From the IMG/VR virus record IMGVR_UViG_2617270889_000001: a stretch of DNA of 64,000 nucleotides, one strand, 5' to 3'. Position numbers and translations under genes: made by a program. Positions 7,221 through 54,992 of this stretch are shown in pieces (positions within the stretch are counted from its first letter, which is position 1; each line of letters opens with the position of its first letter). The DNA comes from a virus. The notes under the pieces were generated by a model. That model saw only the letters and a list, made by a program, of their open reading frames with translations. It was not told the origin of the DNA and searched no databases.

Positions 7221-10200
7221 AATTGGCTCAATCGCCTCTGGTATGGGAATGCACCTGCATGGATTGAAGCAAATTGGTGGTGTCCCTGTGTGGGCAATCG
7301 AATGTGATGAGGCGATCGCCCACTGCTACCACCAAAATCACAAAAGCGAAGTCTACATCAAAAAAGTTCAAGACGTTGCCCCATCTGATTTGGCAGATAT
7401 TGATTTGTTAATAACTACCCTCAGCTGTAAAAATGCATCCATTGCCAACGCTAACCGGGGCGAATTGCCAGAAGATGCAGCAGCCGGGATAGCCACCGGT
7501 GACATCATCAAAGCCTTAAAGCCCCAGTACTTCATGCTTGAGAACGTCTGGGGATACCGCAAATTCGAGTCTTTTAAACAAATTCAAGCGGCGCTGGATG
7601 AGTGTGGCTACTATTCCCGCTTTTACAAATTCAATTGCCGTAATTGGGGTATTGCTCAAAGCCGCGATCGCCTTTATCTTTTGGCAAGCAAGGATGGTAC
7701 TTTCGCTGATCCTGTACCTCCACAAATCTCAGAGGTTGGGTGGTATGAGGTGATCGCTGACTTGATTGATGAGCTACCAGAAACAACACTTGCACCTTGG
7801 CAGTTGCGTAAGTTTCCAGAGTTAGCCCGTGAAGCTAATTCTTGTTTAATCCCAGACCACTCTAATTGGACAAATTTGATTCCTCAGTCTGCCCCTTGCT
7901 CAACAGTTAGAGAAGGACACCAAACCTTTAAAGCTTTAATCAAACGTGCCGGTGGGGGAAGAGATAGCGATCGCCTTTACCAAAGTGATGAACCATCTTT
8001 CACTATCCGAGCGATGGGTAGAAAGTCTGATAATCACTCTCGCATAGCCGACGCGATCGTGGGTGACAGAATTGTTGCGGTGACTCCTCGCGCTTGTCTG
8101 CGGTTTTTTGGCGATAAAGAAACAGCAGATAATATCTGGCTTCCTCCTACCAAGTCGCTAGCGAATGAGGTAGTAGGCAATGGCGCTAGTTGGGTGATGT
8201 TCAAAAGCCTATTTGAGCATTTATCCCAGTCTGTGCCGACGTTGCTTTCCATCGAATCAAACTCCTTGAGGGATATTTCGACTTCGCTCAATACAAGTGG
8301 TGGCGAAATGGTTGAGAACTTTTTTCAGATAGGCGATCGCGTTGAACTTGTATGCGATGTTTTATTTGGTGATATAAACCTCAAAGCTAAAAACCCCAAT
8401 GCCAAACTAGCCATTGCTGGAGAGTGCGCCGAAGTATGCGGCGTTCGAGGTACAAGACTTGCTCTTAGTGTTGGCGGTGAGCCATTTGATTGTCCCATTA
8501 GGTTAGTGAAAAAAAATTTAGATGTTCCTACCGCCGATACCGCAATGTTTACGTCAGAGCAGGGTATAGGGACTCAGGTAGAGAATAATTCTCATTCTGA
8601 ACCTTGCCCCCCTCCACCCAAAGAATCAGATAAGTGGTATACACCACCCAATATTCAGGATTTACTCACGCAGGTACTCGGCGCAGTTGACCTTGACCCT
8701 TGCGCCGATGACGGTAAACATATCAAAGCGGCAAACCATTACACCGCATCTGATGACGGACTTGCTCAGGAGTGGTACGGACGGGTGTTTATGAACCCTC
8801 CCTATTCATGCCCTGGCAAGTGGATGGCGAAATTGCAAGCAGAGATAGAGGCTGGAAGGGTAACGGAGGCGATCGCCCTGGTTCCGGCAGCGACAGATAC
8901 CAATTGGTTGCACCCGCTCCTTGACACTCAACCCATCTGCTTTTGGAAAGGCCGCATCAAATTTTTAGATACGAACTATCAACCAAAACTCTCGGCTAGG
9001 CAATCACACTGCCTGCTGTATTGGGGTACTAATGCACAGAAATTCAAACAAGTTTTTGACGAAGTTGGAACTGTGAAAAATATAAGCCAGTCTGCTCTTC
9101 TCTGCGAGACGCTGCGCGATGGGGTTTCCCCAAGTGGAAGAACTGGCGTTGAATCTGAAACTGCTTGGAATCCTGCTGATTTTGGAGAAGTACCACGCAT
9201 TGCTGATGGCGATCAACTAACGATTTTTTATGACACCCATGAGCCACCAGACCCCGACAATTACCCGTCTATCGCGGCGTATGAACAGGCATGGCAGGAA
9301 TGGGAGAAAAAGCTGACTAGGAGCAACGTAAAACAGGGAGTTCACGTTGTTGACCAGCTTGGATCGTTGGGGATTATCAAAGAAAACTTGGGGTTTGGGT
9401 TTGTCGTTGATTGGTTGGGTGACGCTGTTGCTTACAACTGGGAGCGAGACAGCGATCGCATTGATACTTTTAAGATCGCAAATCAAGGAAGGATGAAGGA
9501 GGAAGGAGGAAGAAGTGATGAAGTTGAATCTGAATCATCATCCCTCTTCCCGACGCTCGCAGACTCGCTACCGCTACGCTATCTCCCCTCTTCCTGCGAA
9601 CTTCCCAATCAAGTTTTTAAAAACAAGGAGCAAAATACTGTGACAACTTTCCAATTTTCTGGCACACAGGCGATCGCCTCTCAAATTGCCCAATTACAAG
9701 AGCAATTGAACAAACTCACCGCCTCTTTAGAGCCATACCAAGAGTGCGAACAAAAAGCTGAGGAATTGCGCCAAGAAGTGGCGCAATTTGGGCGGGAAAT
9801 GGTAGATAAGGGAATTCCCCAGAATGACATTTTAAGTTGGGCGCGATCGCTTTATAGCGCGGCTAGTGGTGTGGAGTTAGTGGAGAGTGATAGTAGTGTA
9901 ATTGCTGCTCAAAATGAAATTATTAGTGAATTGAAAGCCGGAAATCATGTATTGCGTGAGCAATATAGCGAAGTCATAAGACAAAGAGATTTACTAATAA
10001 AGCAGGTTGAAGACAATGATAATGATATGGATGTGCAACTAGCGGAACAACAATTAATACCAGAAGTGGAAGCTTCAAACAAAGAACTTACCGAAGGCGT
10101 AGCAAGCTTTACTGAAGGCGATCGCGTTTGTGTAAATGCTATACACGAATTAGAACACTTACTCGAAAGACTTGGTACAGTAGTTGGAATAAAAGGTAAC

Positions 10201-30120: not shown

Positions 30121-31752
30121 TTAACTAAACAATTTATGCAATTCTTCCATCTCAGAATTAGTCTCAGCTTGCAATGCCGTAGCCGCGTCTTGCGGCACTC
30201 CTCCCAATTCCATTGGGTTCGTTAGGGCAATAATTACGGCTTCCGAGTCTGGGCTTCTCCCTAATCTGGATTTGGTTTTATCCTTGGGTTCACAGAAGAT
30301 TTCATCTTTGGTATTCGTACTATATCTTGTAGCAGTCAAATCTTGGAATACATACTCTTCATTTTCCAGAGGAGCGATCGCTATTCTCCCACCCATCAAT
30401 AGTTCTCGAAACTGCCAGTACAACTCTGCCTTGAGGTTAGTAAATTTCTGCTTTGGTTCCTCTTTTTGTTTTTTCTTCTTGTAGCTGGGGACATCCCCAA
30501 AACGACAAGGCAAGGCTTGATACCCGGTTTTTTTGAGTTTAGCGAGTGTCCCAGCGCCAACTCCGGTATTATCCACAGCAATTGAGTAACCAGTACCAAG
30601 TAGCTTAATTTGACTTGCTGCAATATCGGCGGCGCGTTCTGTGTCGAGTAAGTCTCCCTTGGTGGGGTGGATTTGCACTTCGTACAATACTGGCCCGCGT
30701 AGCAGTGCCAAAGCGTGAGGATCGCCGCCGTCGCCAACATCTAAGCCTAATCTCCAAGGGTAACGCTTGGCGATCGCATCCCAATATTGTGGATTTTGAT
30801 CGTAGAGCGATCGCGCTTGTTTGAGTAGGGTGAGTAGGATGATGCCGTCTGCTGCATCTTCTGCGTATTCACCCATCACCCGCCCTTTCCAATATGCTGA
30901 AGTTTCAAACTTCTCTCGCCGGACTCGTTCTATCCAATCAATTGAGATTGCGCCGGGGATGCGATCGCGCGGGAATTCTGGCGGCCACTCTTGCTGTGGT
31001 TTAATTTCTCCATCTTCATTGATGATATGTTCGGCTACTTCAGGTTTTAATCTGTAAACGCCATCAGCACACAGTTCATAGGCCCACGAAACATTAGGGT
31101 GACTGAACGCAGAAACAGTCAGGCAACGCTTATCTAGTTTACAAGTCTTAGCAAATTGCGACTGCGGATCTACTGGGTTCCCTATCCTCAATCCCCTATT
31201 ATCTGAGCCAGTCAAACAAGCAATAAACCCGTTATCAATCTGTGGTGTTATCCCGTCCGCTTCATCCTCAATCAGCAATTGCTTTTGTCTATGCTGACCC
31301 TGAAAGGAATTCTCTGAATAATCACGACTAGTTATGCCAAATGCGTACACAGTCTCAGAAAACAGCAGTTGCATAATGTCGCATCTACCGCCCAATTTGG
31401 TTTTGTGCAAACCGTGAATTTTTCGCAACTCTGCCCACAGTATCCACTTAACCTGATCTTCACTAGGTGCAGTAGTAATTGCCACACCGCCCACGCAAAA
31501 CAGGAAATAGATTACAAGTAATGAAGCGATAAAGCTTTTCCCGGTTCCGTGTGCTGCTTTGACATTGGTGATAGGGCGATCGCGTACTGATTCAGCTATT
31601 ATTGTTTGCTCGTTAGTTAGCTCAATACCCAGTTCGTTTTTAAAAAAACCTACCGGATCGTCAGCGTACTGGGGAAAGGGGATAGGACGCGAACCACCAT
31701 GAACTAGTGCGGCATATTTAGATGACGAGGTTTTAAGTTTGGCTAGTCCCAT
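30121..31752 (-). CDS. terL: Terminase large subunit
   Basis: Walker A AAHGTGKS, Walker B LLIEDEA, coupling motif IGNP, nuclease LGLDVGDGGD, C-terminal RSPD. Confidence 0.93.
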   Translation of the reverse strand: MGLAKLKTSSSKYAALVHGGSRPIPFPQYADDPVGFFKNELGIELTNEQTIIAESVRDRPITNVKAAHGTGKSFIASLLVIYFLFCVGGVAITTAPSEDQVKWILWAELRKIHGLHKTKLGGRCDIMQLLFSETVYAFGITSRDYSENSFQGQHRQKQLLIEDEADGITPQIDNGFIACLTGSDNRGLRIGNPVDPQSQFAKTCKLDKRCLTVSAFSHPNVSWAYELCADGVYRLKPEVAEHIINEDGEIKPQQEWPPEFPRDRIPGAISIDWIERVRREKFETSAYWKGRVMGEYAEDAADGIILLTLLKQARSLYDQNPQYWDAIAKRYPWRLGLDVGDGGDPHALALLRGPVLYEVQIHPTKGDLLDTERAADIAASQIKLLGTGYSIAVDNTGVGAGTLAKLKKTGYQALPCRFGDVPSYKKKKQKEEPKQKFTNLKAELYWQFRELLMGGRIAIAPLENEEYVFQDLTATRYSTNTKDEIFCEPKDKTKSRLGRSPDSEAVIIALTNPMELGGVPQDAATALQAETNSEMEELHKLFS

Positions 31753-32316
31753 CTATCCAAAAGGATTGGAAATATCCAGCCTAGTAATAACACAGTCTTC
31801 TTCGTAAGTTCTTAAAAATTCCCATGCTTGCTTGTTCCATCTAGCATCAGCAAGTGCGTTGTGTTCGCCTTTGTCTTGTTTTGGTAATTCTGGATCGCCT
31901 AGCTGTTTACACCATTGCTTGATGTCGTTGGCGTACATTGGGAACCCTTTGGGAAGGTCAATCATTGCCCCAAATAACTGACAGAAGGCCACCCAATCGT
32001 AATCAGCATAGTATCCCCAAAATTCTGGCTTCCACCCTTCCTCAAAATGTGGCTCTTTGGGATACCAGCTTAGAAACCTGACAATACTGGTAGCGATCGC
32101 CTGTCTTGTTTTCCATCGATCGCTACCAGTGCAAGTTAAAAAGTCGCCTTCTAAGTGAGGGAGAACGTTTGCTTTAACCCAATTACTTGCTCGACTGAAA
32201 TCACATTCAGCATTTTGAAAATATAGCTCACGCCCATCTTCGGCAACTATGCCAATTGAAATAAGCTCTATTGTACGACCATCTTCAATAAATTCTGTAT
32301 CTAGCCAGTAGTGCAT
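31753..32316 (-). CDS. DEDD 3'-5' exoribonuclease (Rv2179c/RNase AS-like phage family)
   Basis: WLDTEFIEDG, YYADYDWV, HNALADARW. Confidence 0.85.
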   Translation of the reverse strand: MHYWLDTEFIEDGRTIELISIGIVAEDGRELYFQNAECDFSRASNWVKANVLPHLEGDFLTCTGSDRWKTRQAIATSIVRFLSWYPKEPHFEEGWKPEFWGYYADYDWVAFCQLFGAMIDLPKGFPMYANDIKQWCKQLGDPELPKQDKGEHNALADARWNKQAWEFLRTYEEDCVITRLDISNPFG

Positions 32317-32360
32317 AAAATTATTAAGGTTATGTGATTTATAAGCGATCGCCTACTAAT

Positions 32361-32576
32361 TTAGATGATGATTTCTTGAGCAAAAGCAAAAGGAACATAC
32401 GCAATACCTCTTGAGGATTGTGCCATCAATCCTTGTTGAACCAATTGTGAAACGTCCACAGCATACTGCTTTGGTATACCGTCCACAACTTCCACAACAT
32501 CAAAAACCTGCTCTACAAAATTGTTAAACCACATTTGATAGCGTTCTGTATCTGGTTGTGTGATTTTAATTTGCAT
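32361..32576 (-). CDS. 71-aa hypothetical protein flanked by a 17-bp direct repeat
   Basis: AAGCGATCGCCTACTAA at 32343-32359 and 32579-32595. Confidence 0.65.
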   Translation of the reverse strand: MQIKITQPDTERYQMWFNNFVEQVFDVVEVVDGIPKQYAVDVSQLVQQGLMAQSSRGIAYVPFAFAQEIII

Positions 32577-32606
32577 AAAAGCGATCGCCTACTAACTATC
32601 ACAATC

Positions 32607-33200
32607 TTAATCTGGTTTACCAATCGTTCTCAACTCTTCTTCCATCCTCCCTATACCCTCACCAATTACTCTTGCTTGCTCTGGTGTTGCTACACCTTCA
32701 GCCAACAATAATTGCACCGCATCAAGTACAGGAATATCTTTAGGATACAACCGTAGTCGCTTCATTAATTTTTCTAACGCTGACAATTTATCATGCATCG
32801 TTACCGTTGTTGTGGTGGTAACTCCGTCTTTACTTAAAGTTTTGGATACTGTAATACTTTTTACCGAAGCCTTGGCGCGATCGCCCCACTCCTCAGACTT
32901 CTTGATTTTTATGTTATCGCCATCGTACTCTAAGATATCAGTGATCCTTGAAAGGGCGATCGCTGCTACCTCAGCAATAATTTTTACCTCAGACAGTCCC
33001 GCAATTTCCCCTAGATAGGCTTGTATCTTAGTGTTTCTTAGTAGCGCACAAGCGCTTGCAGCAGCGGAGTTATCGTTTTTGACATTGTATCCTGCTCTGA
33101 TATATGCACGAGTTTTATTGAGGTCTTTGACGTACTCGTGACAAAACCTCAGTTGCAAGTCTGTTAATTCTTGTGGGTTAGTTTTCTTATCCCCAGGCAT
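32607..33200 (-). CDS. terS: Terminase small subunit
   Basis: LTDLQLRFCHEYVKDLNKTRAYIRAGY...LLRNTKIQAYL and TMHDKLSALEKL, Terminase_2-like. Confidence 0.9.
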   Translation of the reverse strand: MPGDKKTNPQELTDLQLRFCHEYVKDLNKTRAYIRAGYNVKNDNSAAASACALLRNTKIQAYLGEIAGLSEVKIIAEVAAIALSRITDILEYDGDNIKIKKSEEWGDRAKASVKSITVSKTLSKDGVTTTTTVTMHDKLSALEKLMKRLRLYPKDIPVLDAVQLLLAEGVATPEQARVIGEGIGRMEEELRTIGKPD

Positions 33201-38549: not shown

Positions 38550-41219
38550 TTAGCTGTGTGCCTTGTAGCGGTAGTAGTCTATAGGGGTAAACCCAGTAAC
38601 CGCAGAAAGGGCAAGCCCCGCACCTGCAATCAAACGCTTACGTTTTGCCTTTCGGACTATAACGGTTTTGCCTTTTTTTGTGCGGCGAGTGTAAGTGCTG
38701 CTAAAATTAGCCGAGCAACAACAGTGGCGTTTCAAAACACGGCGTTTAAGTCTACGTTTCAATCCTGCGAAAAACGCGGTCTTGGGGTTTCCCCAAGTGG
38801 AGCGATTTTTCAAGACAGTACCAAATTCCGCCGTTTTAATTGGGTGGCGAGACGCTGCAATGCTATTACCACCAATTCGTCTTTTAGCGACTCTAGAACC
38901 GCTTCCTTCTCCGAATTTGTAAGTATGCTGTAAGCTGGCAAGGACTTCATCGTATACCTCCTTTTCTACTTTTTTGGGATTCTCACCATTGGCTATGCGT
39001 TCAGAGGCGCGGTTAATTGCGGTTGATGTTGCACCTGATAAGTTCTTTTCTTTATCAAAGGCATCAAGCGCTTTGGATGCTGTCTCTGAGATTTCGGCTG
39101 ATTCAGCTACATTTATCTGGTTGCCAGCCTTAGCCAAATCTTCAGCAGCACGCGATCGCCCCACTGTGCCAAATAGCTTTTTCTCTCTAGCTAGTTGACG
39201 TTTAATCGAAGCTTGGATTTGCGCTTTTTCCACAGCAAGCGATCGCGTCTCTGGAGAAAATCCAAGCAAGTCAAACAACCCACCTTGGGATTCCTGCACT
39301 TTAGGAGCGCCAACCACCATATCGGTTAATTCCTGGATGGTATCGTTGTTAATTTTCTTTCCTCGTTTCTCCTCCTTCTCAATCAGGTCTACCAATTCTT
39401 GCTGCTGTTTGTGGTCTTTGAGTGCGTTACCAATTGTCACGGCTCGTTGTTCGGGTAGCGTTCCCTGTACCACGCGGAAGAATAATGGTTCATTAAGTCG
39501 GGATAAAGCTAAACCATCAGTAGCAATTTTTTCACGCATTGGTATGCCCTTGCGTTCTAAATCTTCTCGACTCACTCCAGAATCGCGGAAGAATTTAGCA
39601 GCATCTAATGCATTGCCACGACCCTCAGCTATGTTAGTTAAAGCACCAACAGCGCGGGCTTCTTGCGGAGATTTGGCTTTGATGAATTTAGCAGTCATGG
39701 TTTTGACACCAAGCGCCTTGGCTCGTTCGGTGCGGTTGTGACCATTCACTACATATACTTGCTTGTCCTTGGGATCTTGCCAAACTTGGATAATGCCAGC
39801 TAAGTTTGCATCCCAAGTTTTAACTCCAGAGAGGGAGCCAACTGAACCAGTAGAAGTTTGAGCGCCCAAGATTTTGTATTGAAAGCGTTTCGGGTCAACT
39901 TTTAGCTTTGACACCTCCACTTCAGCAATACCACTAGAAAGTACCTGCCTTGCTCCAACGCTAGCAGCTGCTTGGGTTAGTTGTAGTTTTTCCTTTTGGG
40001 ACTTTAACTTGGCTTGGCGATCGCCTACCGATTGTAATAGTTGGCGATCGTAGTCGTTTTGAGGGAGTCTCCCTTGCTGGGCATCACGGTAAACTTGGGC
40101 GCGTTGCTTGGTGTACTGCTTGTAGGTGATTGGAGTTTTGGTTTTGATTCCCGTTTTTGGGTCGGTGTAGCACTTGCGGTTGTAGGGGATGAAGGTTTTA
40201 CCGCATTGCCAACCACCACGCCCAAACTCTATCCTTCTGCCATCTGCCCTCTGCCCTCTGCCTTCATTAAATTCAGCGCGGCGTTTGATGCGTTTTTTGA
40301 ATAGTGGCAGTCCACCTTGTAAATCTTTGTCGTATGCTAACGGGTTGAATAGGGAAGTTTGAGTATTTTTCTGAGCTTGTTGCTCAGTTTTGAGTTTAGC
40401 CATCCGCGCTTTTTTGGCTTGTTCTTCCCATGATTTAATTCGGGATTGGTCGCCTGACTTTTTAGCCTCAGCTAACTCTTGATTGGCGTAAGCTTCACGG
40501 TCAGCAGCCGATTTAAGGTCTTCAGCTTTGATGAGCTTTTTATTAGATTCCTTGGGTGGGGGCGGGGTGTCTTTGTCGTTCCCGTCTAGGTTTAAGGCTG
40601 GTTTATCCTTTACTCCAAATCTTTGTGCTAACTCTGGATACCCCTGTTGTAAATCTGGGTATCCCTGCTTGGCTGCATTGTGGTTAACTTTGCTCCAAAT
40701 TTCGGCATACTTACCTTTGTTGAAATCGTCAAAAGCTTTTCCAGTTGTCTCTTTATCTTTTTTTCTAGTGGCACTGCTAGCTGCACGGGAAAGGCGATCG
40801 CGCTCCGTACTCACCTGCTCGTATTCACGATAAACATCAGGTGGTAGGTAATCTTTTAATCTATCTTCATACTGATTAACTGTTAATTCTTTAGGATTGT
40901 CTAACTCTTTTAATTTAGATGCCCATTGAGAGCGCTGTTTTTGAATATCAACAGATGGTGGTTTATTTTTCCATCCTGGTACAGCAGCCCGACGGCGATC
41001 GCGTATAGCCTGCTCTCTATCTTTATATAGCGTTTGTGCAGCTTTACCCTTAGAACCGACAATCTTCTGGTAAACCTGATAGTTAATTGGGGTCTTTAAC
41101 CGTTTACCAGTCTTGGGGTCAGTCCAACATTTGGCGCGATTAGGGATGAAAGTGCCACCACAAGGCCAACCAAATTCGGCGCGGCTGTAATCGGACATTC
41201 TAAACAGTACCGTTCCCAC
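38550..41219 (-). CDS. Large head-module protein with two CG-x-TFIP-x4-C repeats and a ParB-like (DdrB-type) domain; start revised to GTG 41219
   Basis: GWPCGGTFIPNRAKCWTDPKTG and GWQCGKTFIPYNRKCYTDPKTG; VDPKRFQYK...W...VYVVNGHNR. Confidence 0.7.
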   Translation of the reverse strand: MGTVLFRMSDYSRAEFGWPCGGTFIPNRAKCWTDPKTGKRLKTPINYQVYQKIVGSKGKAAQTLYKDREQAIRDRRRAAVPGWKNKPPSVDIQKQRSQWASKLKELDNPKELTVNQYEDRLKDYLPPDVYREYEQVSTERDRLSRAASSATRKKDKETTGKAFDDFNKGKYAEIWSKVNHNAAKQGYPDLQQGYPELAQRFGVKDKPALNLDGNDKDTPPPPKESNKKLIKAEDLKSAADREAYANQELAEAKKSGDQSRIKSWEEQAKKARMAKLKTEQQAQKNTQTSLFNPLAYDKDLQGGLPLFKKRIKRRAEFNEGRGQRADGRRIEFGRGGWQCGKTFIPYNRKCYTDPKTGIKTKTPITYKQYTKQRAQVYRDAQQGRLPQNDYDRQLLQSVGDRQAKLKSQKEKLQLTQAAASVGARQVLSSGIAEVEVSKLKVDPKRFQYKILGAQTSTGSVGSLSGVKTWDANLAGIIQVWQDPKDKQVYVVNGHNRTERAKALGVKTMTAKFIKAKSPQEARAVGALTNIAEGRGNALDAAKFFRDSGVSREDLERKGIPMREKIATDGLALSRLNEPLFFRVVQGTLPEQRAVTIGNALKDHKQQQELVDLIEKEEKRGKKINNDTIQELTDMVVGAPKVQESQGGLFDLLGFSPETRSLAVEKAQIQASIKRQLAREKKLFGTVGRSRAAEDLAKAGNQINVAESAEISETASKALDAFDKEKNLSGATSTAINRASERIANGENPKKVEKEVYDEVLASLQHTYKFGEGSGSRVAKRRIGGNSIAASRHPIKTAEFGTVLKNRSTWGNPKTAFFAGLKRRLKRRVLKRHCCCSANFSSTYTRRTKKGKTVIVRKAKRKRLIAGAGLALSAVTGFTPIDYYRYKAHS

Positions 41220-41220
41220 G

Positions 41221-41760
41221 TTAGATCCCCCAATCAATAGAACTGGCAGCAGCCGGATTTCGCTGCTCAACTATGCTATAGCTACGGCTAACAACATCGG
41301 GTATCTCTCCTCTCTTAGGTACTCCCGGTAGAACCATAGGCTCAACTCGATTGAATGCAGTTGATGGTGGAGGAGCTAATCCAGGCAACGTAATCCCGAT
41401 CGCCTGACACTCTTCCTTGGCTTGCTTAAATAGGATCGCACCATACCCCTGATCGCCCCCCTCCCCTTGAGTTTGCTGGTAATGGGTACTCATAATTTCA
41501 GCAACCACAAATTTCTCAACAATGGATGCAAGAATTCTCAATGATTGGGTAGCATCGTTAGGGACAGGTAGCTCATAGAGCATAGATAGAGCCATGTCTA
41601 ACTTGGCTTCTACCTGTTCGCCAAGTTGCTCGTATAAAGAGTAATCAACTTGTTTTGCTCCGAGTGCTTGGGTTTGCCCTAGTGTCGGTGGCCCATTGTT
41701 TAGTTCAAGGCGGTTTTTGAGGCGACGGGCGATCGCCTCTGGAGTTGTGTATTTAAGCAT
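41221..41760 (-). CDS. Head-tail adaptor (Mu gp36-like); start revised to ATG 41760
   Basis: MLKYTTPEAIARRL...EAKLDMALSMLYELPV. Confidence 0.7.
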   Translation of the reverse strand: MLKYTTPEAIARRLKNRLELNNGPPTLGQTQALGAKQVDYSLYEQLGEQVEAKLDMALSMLYELPVPNDATQSLRILASIVEKFVVAEIMSTHYQQTQGEGGDQGYGAILFKQAKEECQAIGITLPGLAPPPSTAFNRVEPMVLPGVPKRGEIPDVVSRSYSIVEQRNPAAASSIDWGI

Positions 41761-47519: not shown

Positions 47520-50500
47520 TTATGGATTTCTTAGAGATCGCATCTGTACTTGCATCTCTTGAACTTGCCTGTAATCATCCCCAATTTTTTTAACTAAATC
47601 TACCCTTTTGGCTTGCAAACTATCAATTTCATCAGATAGCTTGATTGCTCGTTGCGACAATCCCCCACCTAGTATTTGCTGCTGTTCTTGCAATCTCACT
47701 AACTGCTGATTGACGGTTGCAAGTTGAGATTGAGAAGAGGCGATCGCCCCTCTAAATTCTTCAGTACTGCTTTTAAGTTGTTGAATTTGCTGATAGGCTT
47801 CATCACCTAGCTTAAGGTCTTTGATATCTTCACCCACACCCTTCATCTGCTGTCTTGTCTGCTCAAATAAATCTCGTTTTTGGGCGAGTGCAATCTCATT
47901 TTTAGTTGTACCTTTGCCCTGTTGTTTGAGTAAATCTATTTCTTGATTGAGGTCGTTGATTTCTTTAAAAGTGTTGCGAGATGTGGAATCAAGGGCATCT
48001 AATTGTTGTTGAGCCTTAACTACTTTGGGGTTAGTTGATACCGCAGGGTTAGTAAATTGTTTGCTGTTAACAAGTCCTTTTAATCGTTCTTGGGTTGCTT
48101 GTAGTTGTTTTTGTAATTCCTCTGCACTGGTAGCTTTACCCTTGAGATCAAAGGTGGGTATGCGGTTAGCGTCATAGCGTAGGCGCTCGTAAATATCCTT
48201 GGCATCTTGATACGCTTGCTCAATAGTTTGGGATTGGTTTACACGAGAGTTACCTAACTGTTGCAGGAAGGTTTCGTTAGCTTGTTGGTATTGGTCGTAA
48301 AGTTTTGTAATGGGTTGAGAGGCGATCGCCCCAGGTTTTGCAGTGCTACCAATTACATCTTGATACCGTTTGCTCCATTCCTCCATATCAAGCAAAGTTT
48401 TCCTTGCATATCCATAAGCATCATCTGGAGAGATTTGGCGGAATAGCTCGGTGAGTGCGGCGTTATCTTTTTTATCAATAGCTTTTTGGATCTCTCGCTG
48501 TAGTTCGGTTAATCGATTGTTTGATGATCCGATGTTGCTGGGGTTGAGAGCGGCGTTTCGTGTTGAAAGCCAGTAGGTTAAATTGTCTTCAGCATTTTTG
48601 AGCAAGTCGTCAAAACCCTGAACTTTGCGGTCTGAGTTGATAAACCTAAACTCAGTATTACGTTTAACAACTTCAATGTTGGCTTCAATCTGTTTCGTTT
48701 TATCCCACAAATCAGATGCCATTTTGCGGATCTGGGCGAGTGACTTGGAAGTTGTGGGAGCGCCGTTAAGAACTAAAGATAAATCGCGGGGGATGTTGGC
48801 AGTATCCCAACCATTGAAACCAAGCAACCATGCCACCGTACCTTCAGGCATTGATTCTAGTTCTCGCATATCGGCTTGGATTTGTGACAATCGCCGCTCA
48901 ATTACTGGGGCAGTGTTACCCTCAAAGCCTTGATATTGCTCATCGTAGCGGTTGTAAAAGTTTTCTTGATTGGTGGCACGGTTATTTAAGTTGCGGGTTG
49001 CCGCTTCATCGGCGCGGCGGTAAAGTTTCGCACTGCTTTGCATTCGGCGCTGTACAGTGCGGAGGTCTTTTACAGTGTCGTACTGGGTTCTAAGTTCTGG
49101 TTCTAGCTGATTTTTAGTGACTGGTAGCTTGGAAAGTCGTTGTTGTAATTGCTTTAACTTTTCGGCAGTAGAAGCGATCGCCTGATTTGTTTGTTCAATC
49201 GTGTTAATAGCACCCCTAGCAGTGTCAATTACTGGGTTGGTGTAATCATTTAACTGGTCTGATACGGTTCTAATTTGGTCGATGGCATCAGACTGCTGAC
49301 GCTTGAGGCGTTGGAGTTCTAGCCATGCTTGGGAGCGTTCCGCACCGGGGGGAAGCCTAGAAACCTGGGATTCTAGAGTTTGGATTTTGGTATTAAATTC
49401 TTCTAGGTTGGTGCGGAGATTATCAGCAGTTTTTTGGGAAGTGACAGCAGCGCGTTGATTGTTGAGTTTAGTTACTCGCTGCTCTATTGCGTCAACTTTC
49501 TCATTAATTTTGGCAGCATACTTATTATTATTTTCAATCGCTCCATCAATAGTTTTGGTAGCTTTTTGAAGTTGAGCGCGGATTTGGGCGATGCTAGCGG
49601 GCGCTTGTTCAAAGTAGTTGGGCTTGGTGGGGTCAAGTAGGTTTTGGTAATTGTCCTCGACACTGGCTAACCGTCTATCCCATTCAAGTAATTGGTCTTC
49701 TACGGTAGAAACTTGCTGATTGAAACTACGAAAACCATCAACAGTATTTTGAGTGTCACTGGCTTGCTGTTTGAGTGACTTACCAAATAATTCTTTACTG
49801 TTTAACTGATCGTTGGCAGTTTTGACAGATGCTTGATTGAAGTCGTCAACACCACTCCGAATCCCTGACAGTTCTTGTTTCAAAGGATCGGTTACAATTG
49901 TTGGCACTTTTTGAGGTATTACTCGCTCCGGTGGTAATCCAGAAGTGGAGTAAGGTAACGGTGCGCGTGGTGAAATAGCATTACCAGCGCTTACATCTGG
50001 TGGTAATAAATCCTCCCCTGCCCCCCTGCCCCCCTGCCCCCCTGCCTCTCTTACTGGTACAGTTTCCTTAACTGGCGAAAATTGCCGAGGGATAACTACA
50101 GCGCGTTGCTGCATATTCTCAATGGTGCGATCGCCTATACCTTTGCCTTTAAGTCGAGTTTTTAAATCCTCAATATCTTTGAATGAACCTTTTTGCAGTT
50201 CGTTGAATATGGTTTCGGATTGCGATTTGGTCAACCCCAGATTAGCCGCCCATAACTGTGTAGGCGTGCGAATGCTTTTAGGGTCAAGTAAGGGGATAAT
50301 TTGATACCCTTCTGAGAGTTGCTTTAATCGCTCAAAGGTTTTTGCTCCAATTTCGGGGACGTTTTTTAAGTCCTCAATTTTGGTAATTGCTGACTGTTCC
50401 CGGCGCTTGAGGATCGCATTTACTTGGCGGACAGTAAGCGATCGCCCTGGTAATATTTTTTGCAATTCTTCACGAGTCGCGGTATTGATGTCAAGTTGCC

Positions 50501-51737
50501 CTAGTAATACCAAGGGTGTTACTGTTTCCCCTACTTCCTGTTGTTGCTGCGCTTGGGGTTGCTCCGACGCTCGTTCGCGCAGCGTGCCGGAGGCAGGACT
50601 CGCTACCGCTTCGCTATCAGCAACGGGTTCAGTTACAGGGGCTTTCTCACCAATCTCAGAACGGATTTGAGCAATTGCTTCAGCAAGGGTTATACCCGCC
50701 GCCGCAGTCGTGGTCTGTCCGGCGGCTCGTGCAATGGTTTGAATAGGTGTGATTGTTTTCCCGACTAGTACAGATGCAAGAATTCCAGCAGCCGCCCATA
50801 AAATTGGGCGCGGGACTAGTTCGCGGTTTTGTACAAAGCGATCGCGATCTTTTAGTTCAGGAGATTTTTTGAGTACTGGACTTAGCACGCAGCGACATCG
50901 AGGATGAATTGCTGGAGTATTAGCCGCGATCGCTTGCCAATCATTCAACGGAATAACCAAGCCGTGACGAGAAGCGCAAATATTACACCGTCTTTCGTCA
51001 ATTATTGTGTAAAATCTAACTGCTTCAACTAATCCAGACTCGCGGTAAGTCTCTAATCGTCCAGCGTTGTAAGCAAAAGTCAACTCAGTACGAGCAATGG
51101 TTTCAGCGCGTTTTGAATACCTGCCAGATTTAGTGCCTAGCCTTTCCTCAATGCGCTTGAGTAGTTCATTCCTGCTTATGGGTTGCTTGGTGTCGGGCTG
51201 TGGGGTGACTGCTGCGAGTAAGTCTTGCTGAATCTTTTTGTACTCCGAGTTTGTTACGTCTTGTGCTAACTGGTTAATCCGTCCCCTAATTGCGCTTTCG
51301 GCGGGGATGTTGCGGATTGGTCGGATTTGTACACCTGGTTTTTGTGCATCGTCAAAATAAATCAGGTTAGAGAATGAGTTAAAGTTGACTTTCCTGTTTG
51401 CGTTTTTTACCTCTGTATCGGCGTGGTTACTTCCCGTATTCCAGCCGGATAACCAGATGGAGTACAGCGATCGCTTGAGTGCAGATAGCATATATTCCTT
51501 TACTTGTAGCGGGTTTTTCTGGTTCTTTTTTAGTCGGGTATTTCCGTCATCTGCGGTCGTGGTTTGCAACAAATCTTTATCAATAAATGCTCTTGCTGCA
51601 TCTAAAGGAATGTTTGCTAACAACAAAGCACCTTTGGCTTCTAAATTATCTAAATCAGCTAATACTTTCTTTTCTCCCAAAATCAATTTATCGTTGGGGA
51701 ATTGGGGAGCGAAAGCACTAAAAACTGAATCAAACAT
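47520..51737 (-). CDS. Extended MuF (SPP1 gp7-like) minor head protein with HhH domains and a long coiled coil
   Basis: RAETIARTE...IDERRCNIC...PAIHPRCRC MuF domain; LDINTATREEL...VPEIGAKTFERL HhH plus a second HhH. Confidence 0.85.
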   Translation of the reverse strand: MFDSVFSAFAPQFPNDKLILGEKKVLADLDNLEAKGALLLANIPLDAARAFIDKDLLQTTTADDGNTRLKKNQKNPLQVKEYMLSALKRSLYSIWLSGWNTGSNHADTEVKNANRKVNFNSFSNLIYFDDAQKPGVQIRPIRNIPAESAIRGRINQLAQDVTNSEYKKIQQDLLAAVTPQPDTKQPISRNELLKRIEERLGTKSGRYSKRAETIARTELTFAYNAGRLETYRESGLVEAVRFYTIIDERRCNICASRHGLVIPLNDWQAIAANTPAIHPRCRCVLSPVLKKSPELKDRDRFVQNRELVPRPILWAAAGILASVLVGKTITPIQTIARAAGQTTTAAAGITLAEAIAQIRSEIGEKAPVTEPVADSEAVASPASGTLRERASEQPQAQQQQEVGETVTPLVLLGQLDINTATREELQKILPGRSLTVRQVNAILKRREQSAITKIEDLKNVPEIGAKTFERLKQLSEGYQIIPLLDPKSIRTPTQLWAANLGLTKSQSETIFNELQKGSFKDIEDLKTRLKGKGIGDRTIENMQQRAVVIPRQFSPVKETVPVREAGGQGGRGAGEDLLPPDVSAGNAISPRAPLPYSTSGLPPERVIPQKVPTIVTDPLKQELSGIRSGVDDFNQASVKTANDQLNSKELFGKSLKQQASDTQNTVDGFRSFNQQVSTVEDQLLEWDRRLASVEDNYQNLLDPTKPNYFEQAPASIAQIRAQLQKATKTIDGAIENNNKYAAKINEKVDAIEQRVTKLNNQRAAVTSQKTADNLRTNLEEFNTKIQTLESQVSRLPPGAERSQAWLELQRLKRQQSDAIDQIRTVSDQLNDYTNPVIDTARGAINTIEQTNQAIASTAEKLKQLQQRLSKLPVTKNQLEPELRTQYDTVKDLRTVQRRMQSSAKLYRRADEAATRNLNNRATNQENFYNRYDEQYQGFEGNTAPVIERRLSQIQADMRELESMPEGTVAWLLGFNGWDTANIPRDLSLVLNGAPTTSKSLAQIRKMASDLWDKTKQIEANIEVVKRNTEFRFINSDRKVQGFDDLLKNAEDNLTYWLSTRNAALNPSNIGSSNNRLTELQREIQKAIDKKDNAALTELFRQISPDDAYGYARKTLLDMEEWSKRYQDVIGSTAKPGAIASQPITKLYDQYQQANETFLQQLGNSRVNQSQTIEQAYQDAKDIYERLRYDANRIPTFDLKGKATSAEELQKQLQATQERLKGLVNSKQFTNPAVSTNPKVVKAQQQLDALDSTSRNTFKEINDLNQEIDLLKQQGKGTTKNEIALAQKRDLFEQTRQQMKGVGEDIKDLKLGDEAYQQIQQLKSSTEEFRGAIASSQSQLATVNQQLVRLQEQQQILGGGLSQRAIKLSDEIDSLQAKRVDLVKKIGDDYRQVQEMQVQMRSLRNP

Positions 51738-51745
51738 AATATTTT

Positions 51746-53104
51746 ATGACAACTATTGAAAACTCAAGTAAGCTAATTCCTTTATACGCCACAGAGTTAG
51801 CGCCGTGGTTAGATGAGCTTGATACTGATTTTGTAAGAGAACTTCCAGAAACAGGGGAGACTTACACCCTAGAAGATTTGATCAAGATGATCAAAATCTG
51901 CGTGGTAAATAAAGCGGCGATCAACTTAAAAACCATGAGAGCGGCGGCGGCGGTTGGACTTTACTCCCATAATGACCCTACCCCATATCCTACTGCGACA
52001 GGCCCGCAAACAATTCAAGAATGGATGCGCGGGAATTTTGACTCCATGAAAGGAAGTCTCCCCGCAGTAGTACGGAAGATGATTAAGCAAGCTTATAGTC
52101 TGGGAACTTCTTGCGGTGAGATTAGATGGTATAAGCGCAAAACTAGTCTGGGTTCCGAGTGGCGATTAAAGTCAATCCCTGTACTTAACCCTCTGCGGTA
52201 TTCGTTCGCTGGAGTTAAGGGTAGGGTAGATCGGATTATTTACCGCCCATTGCATGATTCTTCAAAAGCTATACCCTACGCAAAGCTACTTCACATTTAT
52301 TCACCATCACTTGAAGAGCCGGAAGATCCACGGGGCGATCCGGCGGCGGCTTCTGCTTTGCCATTTTACAAATCGCGGCAGATTATGTACAAGCAGTGGA
52401 CGCAAGCCGGACAAAGACAGGCCACTGGATTCACAATAATCAAAGCTCCCAGCGAGAAAACAGTAACAATTTTAGGGTCTAATGGCTTACCGCTAAGAAA
52501 CGACGATGGTACAATCAAAACTCAACCAGCGCTTTATGCAGCTGTTTCATCAGCCAAAAATATTGAAAATGGCAGCGTTTTCGGAACCGATAAAGAAAAC
52601 GATGTGATTAATGTTCCGGGTGGTGGTGGGGAAGGATTTTTTAATCTTTCACTTACTCACTACGAAAAAATGATTTTCTATGCTTACGGCGTGCCATCAA
52701 CAATTTTTAATGACACGGCATCAGGTATTGGGAATTCCGGGATTAATGCCGGACACCGACTAATACTTGATACCCAAATTGAGGATATTGTGAATGATTT
52801 AAGGGATGAGCTATTAGAAAAAATTGTACGTCCTTTGCTCATGGCTAACTTTGGCCCCAAATTTGAGGATAATTTGGGTGAGTTTAAATCAGATAAGTTC
52901 CTTGACCCGTCACTAGCGGCGACTAGAGTTAGTAATTTGACTATAGCAATGTCCTCTGGGACAATTGACGCAAACGACCTTGAAGCAACTAATAGACTGC
53001 GTGAAGATTTGGGATTGTCGCCATTTACTAAAGAACAATTTGACCAGCAGCAGCTTGCAAAACTATTGGCACAGCAAGAGCAGCAATATGGCGAAGGGTA
53101 TTGA
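51746..53104 (+). CDS. Portal protein (Mu gp29/DUF935-like)
   Basis: 452 aa; GTSCGEIRW, KLLHIY, EKMIFYAYGVP, IVRPLLMANFG, NRLREDLGL. Confidence 0.8.
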   Translation: MTTIENSSKLIPLYATELAPWLDELDTDFVRELPETGETYTLEDLIKMIKICVVNKAAINLKTMRAAAAVGLYSHNDPTPYPTATGPQTIQEWMRGNFDSMKGSLPAVVRKMIKQAYSLGTSCGEIRWYKRKTSLGSEWRLKSIPVLNPLRYSFAGVKGRVDRIIYRPLHDSSKAIPYAKLLHIYSPSLEEPEDPRGDPAAASALPFYKSRQIMYKQWTQAGQRQATGFTIIKAPSEKTVTILGSNGLPLRNDDGTIKTQPALYAAVSSAKNIENGSVFGTDKENDVINVPGGGGEGFFNLSLTHYEKMIFYAYGVPSTIFNDTASGIGNSGINAGHRLILDTQIEDIVNDLRDELLEKIVRPLLMANFGPKFEDNLGEFKSDKFLDPSLAATRVSNLTIAMSSGTIDANDLEATNRLREDLGLSPFTKEQFDQQQLAKLLAQQEQQYGEGY

Positions 53105-53161
53105 TTGGAATTATGTAAAGTCGTACTAGAAGCATAGAAGCATGAGATTTTTGTGTTTTAA

Positions 53162-53192
53162 AAGTTGAGAAGGGGCGATCGCCCCCTAACTT
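53162..53192. terminator. HIP1-centred hairpin after the portal gene
   Basis: aagtt...GGGGCGATCGCCCC...aactt. Confidence 0.5.
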
Positions 53193-53269
53193 GTAGGAAA
53201 AATATTATGAAATGAGAATCCTCTAAACTTAATCCATCTCTTTGGTGGCAATTAAATCTCGATGGTGGA

Positions 53270-53512
53270 ATGCTGAATGTTTTTATTCAACACAAACCAG
53301 ATGGATACTACGCCTTTATTGGCACTGGTATGCGCGTACAAGTGATGAAATTTCACACTTTACCTGAAGCCAAAGCGTGGTTGTTAAAACAGTTAAAGCT
53401 TTCACTTGATAAAATGCAATCCGAAATGCAACCGGAGATCCCTTGGCTATTGTGGGGATGCCTTGGGGGAGCTTTTGCCCTTTTAGCAACGTGGAGAATG
53501 TTAATTTTCTAG
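53270..53512 (+). CDS. Small protein with C-terminal transmembrane helix
   Basis: WLLWGCLGGAFALLATW. Confidence 0.55.
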   Translation: MLNVFIQHKPDGYYAFIGTGMRVQVMKFHTLPEAKAWLLKQLKLSLDKMQSEMQPEIPWLLWGCLGGAFALLATWRMLIF

Positions 53513-53520
53513 TTAATAAA

Positions 53521-53754
53521 ATGCCTGCACCAAAATATACTCATTGGAAAAATTCACCATCAAAATATGCGGCTTGTGGTACTCCCAACCCAAGAACAGG
53601 AACTTGCGAGAAGTTGCAAGTAACTTGTCCTCGGTGTTTGAGAATTGTGGAAAGAAGCGATCGCCTCAATGCTCTGCCTCAGCAATGCTACGAGTCTGTA
53701 ATTAAAAAAACTGAATCTTGGCTTGCCAAGTTGGGAAGATTTACCAGAGCATAG
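53521..53754 (+). CDS. Small Cys-rich protein; start revised to ATG 53521
   Basis: AACG...TCE...TCPRC. Confidence 0.55.
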   Translation: MPAPKYTHWKNSPSKYAACGTPNPRTGTCEKLQVTCPRCLRIVERSDRLNALPQQCYESVIKKTESWLAKLGRFTRA

Positions 53755-53820
53755 CCGATTGCTTTATCAAATCGATGTTATGCAAAATGCTGAAAAATTA
53801 TTGTAGAGGGGCGATCGCCT

Positions 53821-54123
53821 ATGAACAAAGATATAACTATAGTTCCCGCAGATTATCATTTTGAGATTCCTGAAGAAATTGCTAAATGTCCATACTGTGA
53901 GACAAAACTTCATGTTCAAGTGCATGGGTGGACAGAAGAAGATGACGGATGGGTTGCTGATTCGATAGAAATGGTATGCGAATCTGAGCCAGATATTGAT
54001 GACGATGCGTGGGATGATTTCAATGAATCCCATAGCGAAATGCCTTATGTTTATTTGCTGCCAGTGCAAAACACAGTACAGGAGTGGATTAACAATAATT
54101 TTCGGTTTGATATGGAGCAATGA
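53821..54123 (+). CDS. Acidic Zn-ribbon protein
   Basis: CPYC; GAGG-HIP1 immediately before the ATG. Confidence 0.6.
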   Translation: MNKDITIVPADYHFEIPEEIAKCPYCETKLHVQVHGWTEEDDGWVADSIEMVCESEPDIDDDAWDDFNESHSEMPYVYLLPVQNTVQEWINNNFRFDMEQ

Positions 54124-54992
54124 AATACGCTAAAAGTTTGCTCTACGGAATAATTGTAGATGCTGTTACTTCCGATTACCAAGATTACGCAAACTGGCAA
54201 TTAAGATGCCCCAAATGCGGGGAGCCAGTTCACTTGATTGGTGCATCAGAGCGAGTTGAACACGTAAGATTAGCGCCAAAATCAAAGCAGATAGTTTTGG
54301 TAAGTAGTGCCAAAATCAGTGCATCATTTGCTCATTTCAAGGGATTAGCCGATGAAGCTTGTGAAAACTTCAATTCCCAAATATCTAAGAACTATATTGA
54401 AAAATTTGAAAGAATAAATAGAGAGCAAAGGCTCAAGGTATATAATCAAAGATTTTTAGAAATAGTTGGCTATAACAAAAGTATGAAGGGATGCTTTTTT
54501 GATAACTTTAAAAAAGTAAATAAAATTAATAACAAAGTTGCTAAAAGTATTGAGCAAGATGCAGCAAAAGATTTTTACTCAACAGTATCACAATTAACTA
54601 AACTTGCAGGTGGGGCAAGAATTTTATTAGAAGGCATAAAATCTGATAAGTACCCATTAAATCGTTTTGACACAAGTCGAGCTAAAGATGAGGAGGTTAA
54701 ACAGTTTGTTCGGTGGGTACAAGAAGTTGACATTGATAGACAAATGATACTTCTTGAAGAAGCAATTGCCTTTTTAAAAACTCGCGCAGCGAGGGCGATC
54801 GCCTTACAGCTACTTGAATTATGTTTTTCTAGATTAATCTTCCATCGCCCAGGTACGATTGATTTAATCAAGATTTCAGGCAACTCCATAGCCGAAGAAG
54901 ATAGCAAATACAGGGAGTTAATCGAGCGATGTGTTACCGAATTAGTGCAAATATTTGCGCTTACCGATTGGGCAGGTGCGGTAGGAAATTGA
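54120..54992 (+). CDS. Protein with CoiA-like N-terminal Zn finger
   Basis: WQLRCPKCGEPVHL...SFAHF. Confidence 0.55.
   Translation: MKYAKSLLYGIIVDAVTSDYQDYANWQLRCPKCGEPVHLIGASERVEHVRLAPKSKQIVLVSSAKISASFAHFKGLADEACENFNSQISKNYIEKFERINREQRLKVYNQRFLEIVGYNKSMKGCFFDNFKKVNKINNKVAKSIEQDAAKDFYSTVSQLTKLAGGARILLEGIKSDKYPLNRFDTSRAKDEEVKQFVRWVQEVDIDRQMILLEEAIAFLKTRAARAIALQLLELCFSRLIFHRPGTIDLIKISGNSIAEEDSKYRELIERCVTELVQIFALTDWAGAVGN

Follow-up and report, generated by a model that had tools for sequence, protein, structure and literature searches.

Phages with a Mu/SPP1-type head module carry the portal gene (gp29/gp6) followed by the gene of a MuF-type minor head protein (gp30/gp7). The same two families are adjacent in the DNA considered here, a stretch of 64,000 nt from the IMG/VR record IMGVR_UViG_2617270889_000001, and protease/scaffold-like and capsid genes follow them as well. 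This stretch at its full length is called the window below, and coordinates are window positions unless another locus is named. The window lies within a prophage of a cyanobacterial (Nostoc) chromosome and belongs to a clade of Nostocales phages and prophages with the Mu/SPP1-type head module. Unlike the known modules, its portal gene lies on the opposite strand, and only 8 bp separate its start from that of MuF; the terminase genes, about 20 kb off, interrupt the tail region in its middle, the co-directional order terminase-portal-MuF is not found, and HhH and coiled-coil regions lengthen MuF to 1405 aa. A literature search found neither this prophage nor its arrangement described.

The portal gene is also flanked by a short inverted repeat, and in the initial annotation it was placed on a possible invertible cassette acting as a virion-assembly switch. 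A structural phage gene bracketed by inverted repeats is indeed a feature shared with the Mu G segment/Gin, P1 C segment/Cin, e14 Pin and Salmonella Hin systems. In those systems the crossover sites measure at least ~26 bp, an invertase of ~190 aa is encoded alongside, and there is a Fis-dependent enhancer. The switch selects between tail-fibre or flagellin variants, and populations contain both orientations. The window differs from them in its unconserved repeat of 11 nt, in having no invertase and in the single orientation seen. In the fimS-type switches and the Bacteroides promoter invertons, short inverted repeats (approximately 9-20 bp) can suffice; however, these elements flip promoters of a few hundred bp with a dedicated recombinase nearby, whereas none of the 27 Phage_integrase matches of the host genome places a tyrosine recombinase in or near this prophage. 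It is highly likely that the divergent portal/MuF arrangement is a fixed gene order and not a switch.

The MuF-domain minor head protein (47520-51737, minus strand, 1405 aa) was recognized by Pfam and NCBIfam profiles, with Phage_Mu_F matching residues 189-285 (E 9.7e-15, 55.7 bits) and TIGR01641 (SPP1-gp7 minor capsid) scoring 66.8 bits against a cut-off of 39.65. The MuF/SPP1-gp7 domain spans residues ~187-288, a ComEA-type HhH region (Pfam HHH_3) residues ~414-473, and the C-terminal ~750 aa are a coiled coil with weak SMC/Rad50-like matches. This gene is the first of the leftward head-tail operon. The portal protein of the Portal_Mu/DUF935 family (51746-53104, plus strand, 452 aa) is encoded by the first gene of a rightward run of open reading frames (ORFs) reaching ~56328. 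Its identification rests on Pfam (Portal_Mu, 29.6 bits, cut-off 23.9) and on the predicted fold, since the PDB sequence search and PHROGs gave no match. The AlphaFold model, obtained with 26 homologues as input (mean pLDDT 76), was matched by Foldseek to the solved portals of G20c, HFTV1, P74-26, JBD30 and Mu with E values of about 1e-13 to 1e-8, the best match having E 3.5e-13 and probability 1.00. The head module contains a portal protein with the portal fold together with a MuF/gp7 domain protein. The MuF start codon (CAT at 51735-51737) and the portal ATG (51746-51748) are separated by the 8 bp of the A/T-only spacer AATATTTT (51738-51745), so the back-to-back starts described initially can be read directly in the sequence.

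The head-to-head layout is shared by six relatives of decreasing portal identity. These are two Nostoc sp. loci, L001 (92%, start gap 24 bp) and L002 (91%, gap 0, CATATG at L002:5998-6003); the IMG/VR viral contig L005 (68%, gap 2 bp); L016 from Nostocales HT-58-2 (64%, gap 0, the starts abutting as CATATG at L016:5998-6003); the metagenomic L017 (60%, gap -2, a CATG overlap at L017:6000-6003); and L019, a Logan contig of a public run (47%, gap 52 bp). Three of them (L002, L016 and L017) have no intergenic DNA at all between the two starts. In the window, L001, L002 and L005, conservation of both proteins begins at Met1, and the spacer is not conserved. The head-to-head portal/MuF order is very probably old and fixed, and it is common to at least six related cyanobacterial phages or prophages. 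The MuF homologues of the window and the six relatives range from 529 to 1405 aa; in the long forms, two HhH motifs are followed by an added coiled coil of ~750 aa. Domains of toxins or enzymes were not detected in these proteins.

The canonical order is kept exactly by the distant L011 (30% portal identity), in which a 481-aa ORF without family match, portal, MuF, protease-like and capsid genes are co-directional, with portal and MuF overlapping. In the portal tree, the head-to-head genomes are dispersed within a supported ingroup (96/98) and L011 falls outside; L011 and L013 are on long branches, and their placement is unsure. Because L011 retains the co-directional portal-MuF order, an ancient and fixed inversion of the portal gene in the clade of the window is supported, and this event predates the relatives with only 47% portal identity. 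The past inversion suggested in the initial annotation is therefore retained in its general form, the clade being flipped relative to L011, but not in the form of an exchange through the 11-nt repeat, whose arms are absent even from the relatives with 91-92% identity.

Other members of the ingroup have been rearranged further. A MuF gene adjoining the portal was not found in L018, L020, L021 and L022; in L020-L022 the portal is still divergent from the head module, and in L018 other plus-strand genes lie upstream of it. In L023 the portal is located downstream of the capsid genes and is co-directional with them. The sister portals of L023 and L020 (100/100 support) are thus arranged oppositely relative to the capsid genes, co-directional in L023:3352-11410 and divergent in L020:1-7407, which implies a second inversion with a breakpoint adjoining the portal. 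L013 (25% portal identity) has an inverted plus-strand cassette of a 206-aa gene, the portal and a 157-aa gene (L013:6575-9109) between a protease-like gene and the minus-strand gene of a 1003-aa protein whose MuF match is weak and falls below the threshold (22.6 vs 29.6 bits). An imperfect inverted repeat of 46 nt (83%) lies just downstream of this cassette, at 9063-9108 and 9345-9390 of L013. Portal position and orientation have thus changed several times over evolution, and the orientation is fixed within the lineage of the window. The Pseudanabaena phages Pam2 and PA-SR01 were rejected for synteny comparison, their portal identity of 24% being too distant.

On the preferred reading, the portal gene was inverted long ago in this Nostocales clade with its Mu/SPP1-type head module and now heads a rightward operon diverging start-to-start from the leftward MuF-protease-scaffold-capsid-tail operon. 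Because the start gap is only -2 to 52 bp across the clade, the promoter and 5' leader of each gene should be located inside the coding sequence of its partner, or else the mRNAs would be leaderless. In this respect the junction is similar to divergent abutting or overlapping gene pairs with mutually embedded promoters: the starts abut or overlap in three relatives and are 2-52 bp apart in the rest, so there is no room for intergenic promoters. The two divergent transcription units may overlap or compete at their 5' ends, and translation would start without a Shine-Dalgarno (SD) sequence on an A/U-rich leader. No SD-like tetramer was found before the MuF or the portal start, in agreement with the initial annotation. 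Such absence is ordinary here, because an SD-like motif precedes only 16 of the 62 ORFs in the window and because 71% of cyanobacterial genomes were assigned to the class without pronounced upstream signals in a GeneMarkS-2 survey (PMC6028130).

A further possibility, put forward only tentatively, is that the junction is a compact control point working without DNA rearrangement. The promoters would then lie within each other's first codons and transcription would be mutually exclusive or antisense-coupled, setting the timing of portal synthesis or its low stoichiometry relative to other head proteins. For leaderless mRNAs, -10-like hexamers were sought at a suitable distance from each ATG, and no conserved one was found. 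A CATAAT motif ends 5 nt before the portal ATG of the window, but the gap-0 relatives L002 and L016 have nothing comparable at the homologous place, and the leaderless reading is not supported. In the DNA alignment of the seven head-to-head genomes, a block immediately before the portal ATG is conserved; its variation falls on third positions of MuF codons, and the block therefore reflects protein conservation. No Rfam match was obtained over 51000-54500, and the fold of the portal 3' flank reached a z-score of only -1.6.

The repeat itself consists of CATAATATTTT (51735-51745), that is the MuF start codon with the spacer, and its single exact inverted copy AAAATATTATG in a non-conserved intergenic stretch at 53199-53209. 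It is exactly 11 nt long, extension being blocked by A opposite A on both sides. The right arm opens a two-codon mini-ORF, ATG-AAA-TGA (plus strand, 53207-53215), for which there is no evidence of function, and AGGA is located 8 nt ahead of its ATG at 53207. The exact inverted copy, the well-spaced AGGA and the mini-ORF had all been correctly reported at first. In the same 3 kb, one more inverted pair is exact over 11 nt (51588/53072) and eight others are exact over 10 nt. When HIP1, the cyanobacterial palindrome GCGATCGC, was left out of the counts, the window had 71 inverted 11-mer pairs 0.5-3 kb apart vs approximately 43 in composition-preserving shuffles. An inverted repeat of at least 11 nt was present in 2.5% of segment pairs (140 nt and 340 nt at the spacing of the portal flanks) sampled over the whole window. 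Each arm has the form W8-ATG, an A/T-only octamer followed by ATG. There are 12 opposite-strand W8-ATG pairs no more than 3 kb apart, among which the expectation is about 0.05-0.1 identical pairs in a 64-kb window. The 11-nt repeat hardly rises above chance level and is a coincidence of two A/T-only start-codon contexts, a kind of context common in this SD-poor element; the coincidence is mild and was selected post hoc.

The two copies might instead share a function unrelated to recombination, namely a translation-initiation or regulator-binding context that serves the MuF/portal junction and, a second time, the beginning of the next rightward unit. This is improbable. A/T-only octamers do precede 6 of the 62 ORF starts, about nine times the expectation from base composition, and A/U-rich leaders support SD-independent initiation in cyanobacteria (literature cited in PMC6028130). 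However, the second copy opens an ORF of just two codons, the right copy is not conserved in the relatives, and the window has no copy of the 11-mer beyond the two arms even with one mismatch allowed.

Less probable still is a reversible phase switch, in which a recombinase would flip the 1.45-kb portal segment between the 11-nt arms and alternate a divergent 'off' state, silencing particle formation, with a canonical 'on' state. The exact repeat precisely brackets the portal gene, and the geometry, checked by hand, is as was initially proposed: after a flip, the portal would precede MuF and the AGGA would stand 8 nt before the MuF ATG. The 11-mer, however, is absent in either arm from all six head-to-head relatives, whose longest portal-flanking inverted repeats are of 7-9 nt and mutually unrelated. 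Comparison of portal orientation and repeat conservation in relatives, the check that had been suggested for the switch, thus gave six divergent loci and not one with the 11-mer. Most of the outcome that had initially been named as refuting the switch is thereby observed, namely its part on arrangement and repeat conservation. Moreover, it is the supposed 'off' layout that presumably viable phages conserve, the IMG/VR viral contig among them.

Only the orientation of the window was seen in the seven head-to-head genomes, the two assemblies of this genome and the contigs of four runs. The second assembly, G001 (9.1 Mb, 6 contigs), matches the window with 100% identity between 51500 and 53400, both junctions included. 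Four studies supplied one DNA run and three RNA-library runs; in each run the contigs span 50800-54200 collinearly, and no joints, strand changes or variant letters were found in them over this interval. This shows that the reference arrangement is the dominant one. The RNA-library contigs show neither strand, transcript ends, level nor the distinction of RNA from carried-over DNA. In the RNA run X20 there is a contig break at 51498, where Illumina adapter letters are joined on at a depth of 5. The break is most likely adapter read-through; conceivably it could mark an RNA end within the MuF 5' region, ~250 nt upstream of the portal ATG.

The recombinase content is no more favourable to a switch. 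A genome-wide profile search gave no Resolvase or Phage_integrase match in the span of the window (C1:3197203-3261202), and the initial statement that the window has no invertase is correct. The genome has four PF00239 matches, none of them in this span, and 27 PF00589 matches, none of them in or near C1:3197203-3271333. The nearest PF00239 match is a 446-aa large serine recombinase (Resolvase, Recombinase and Zn_ribbon_recom domains) about 9 kb past the right end of the window. This protein is a large serine integrase and the only recombinase of the prophage, no small serine invertase or tyrosine recombinase having been found in or near it. Large serine integrases use long att sites. The switch reading does not hold: the length and conservation of the repeat, the recombinase content and the orientations observed all contradict it.

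That the repeat is a scar of inversion by recombination between short inverted homologies is scarcely credible either: an inversion did happen in the history of the clade (L011 vs the ingroup) and recombination between inverted microhomologies keeps both copies, yet relatives with as little as 47% portal identity share the layout, the spacer and 3' flank wholly differ between relatives of 91-92% identity (no alignment of the portal 3' flank is possible with L001 or L002), and an 11-nt non-coding scar could not persist in one lineage only. Since the inversion is older than the split at 47% identity, the lineage-specific 11-mer is to be regarded as neither its scar nor its substrate.

Several points weigh against the fixed order with embedded expression signals. 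Under the tightest definition (left arm no more than 30 nt from the starts, right arm no more than 150 nt from the stop), an inverted repeat of at least 11 nt occurs at only 0.12% of sampled positions, so the coincidence is not trivial. The geometry fits neatly, as inversion would place the AGGA before MuF, and repeats of 9-11 bp serve some tyrosine-recombinase switches such as fimS. Assembled contigs drop rare variants, and a flipped subpopulation of low frequency would escape them. A conserved promoter-like element at the junction was not found by the sigma-70 scan or in the seven-genome alignment. The scan over 51300-53500 gave 4 sites vs 4.1 expected, none of them well placed, and an embedded conserved promoter was rejected as a candidate. 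Synonymous-site conservation is raised only marginally at the 5' ends (0.51-0.58 in MuF codons 1-30 vs 0.425 overall; 0.50-0.54 in portal codons 31-60 vs 0.414). Constraint at these sites was likewise rejected, the differences being too small and the sequences phylogenetically non-independent.

With the fixed gene order as the preferred reading, the protein families and the inverted head-gene blocks are of known kinds, and the abutting or overlapping starts, conserved in a clade of cyanobacterial prophages, add a minor new variant. A portal phase switch, if true, would give prophages a novel means of gating particle formation, and the evidence speaks against it. The rearranged Mu/SPP1-type head module of this Nostocales prophage lineage is useful for annotating cyanobacterial prophages. 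The junction offers a small natural test case in which two essential genes are expressed without an intergenic region or SD sequences.

Among the other features near the portal is a HIP1-type palindrome of 14 nt (53172-53185), 68 nt past the portal stop, in which the GCGATCGC core is lengthened by GGG/CCC. It forms a short hairpin without a following T-tract and was not called as a terminator. HIP1 palindromes are frequent in the window; this one is a marker of cyanobacterial DNA and no part of any switch.

Leftward from the junction, the minus strand carries MuF, a protease-like gene, three ORFs without family match (187, 320 and 310 aa) and the gene of the major head protein. Beyond it are several ORFs, the gene of a 906-aa protein and then TerS, RNase H and TerL (32607-30121), followed past TerL by a 2074-aa tape measure and tail genes. 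TerS (32607-33200) and TerL (30121-31752) are thus ~20 kb from the portal; together with the RNase H-like gene (30121-33200 for the three) they sit between neck/tail genes and the tape-measure gene, and the whole morphogenesis region is scrambled vs the textbook order. The 906-aa head-module protein (38550-41270) matches positions 998-1322 of 1362 of PHROG 21 ('portal protein') with E 5e-59, and no Pfam or NCBIfam match was found for it. Rather than a second portal, this is probably a head protein of the polyvalent or ejected type. At the ends of the element, a PLD-nuclease/HhH (ComEA-like) gene is represented by an N-terminal PLDc_2 part at 441-1508 and a C-terminal PLDc_2 and HHH_3 part (186 aa) beside the 446-aa recombinase (L015:8994-10932; G001:C1:3269993-3271931). 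The prophage appears to split this gene, giving an element of ~72 kb.

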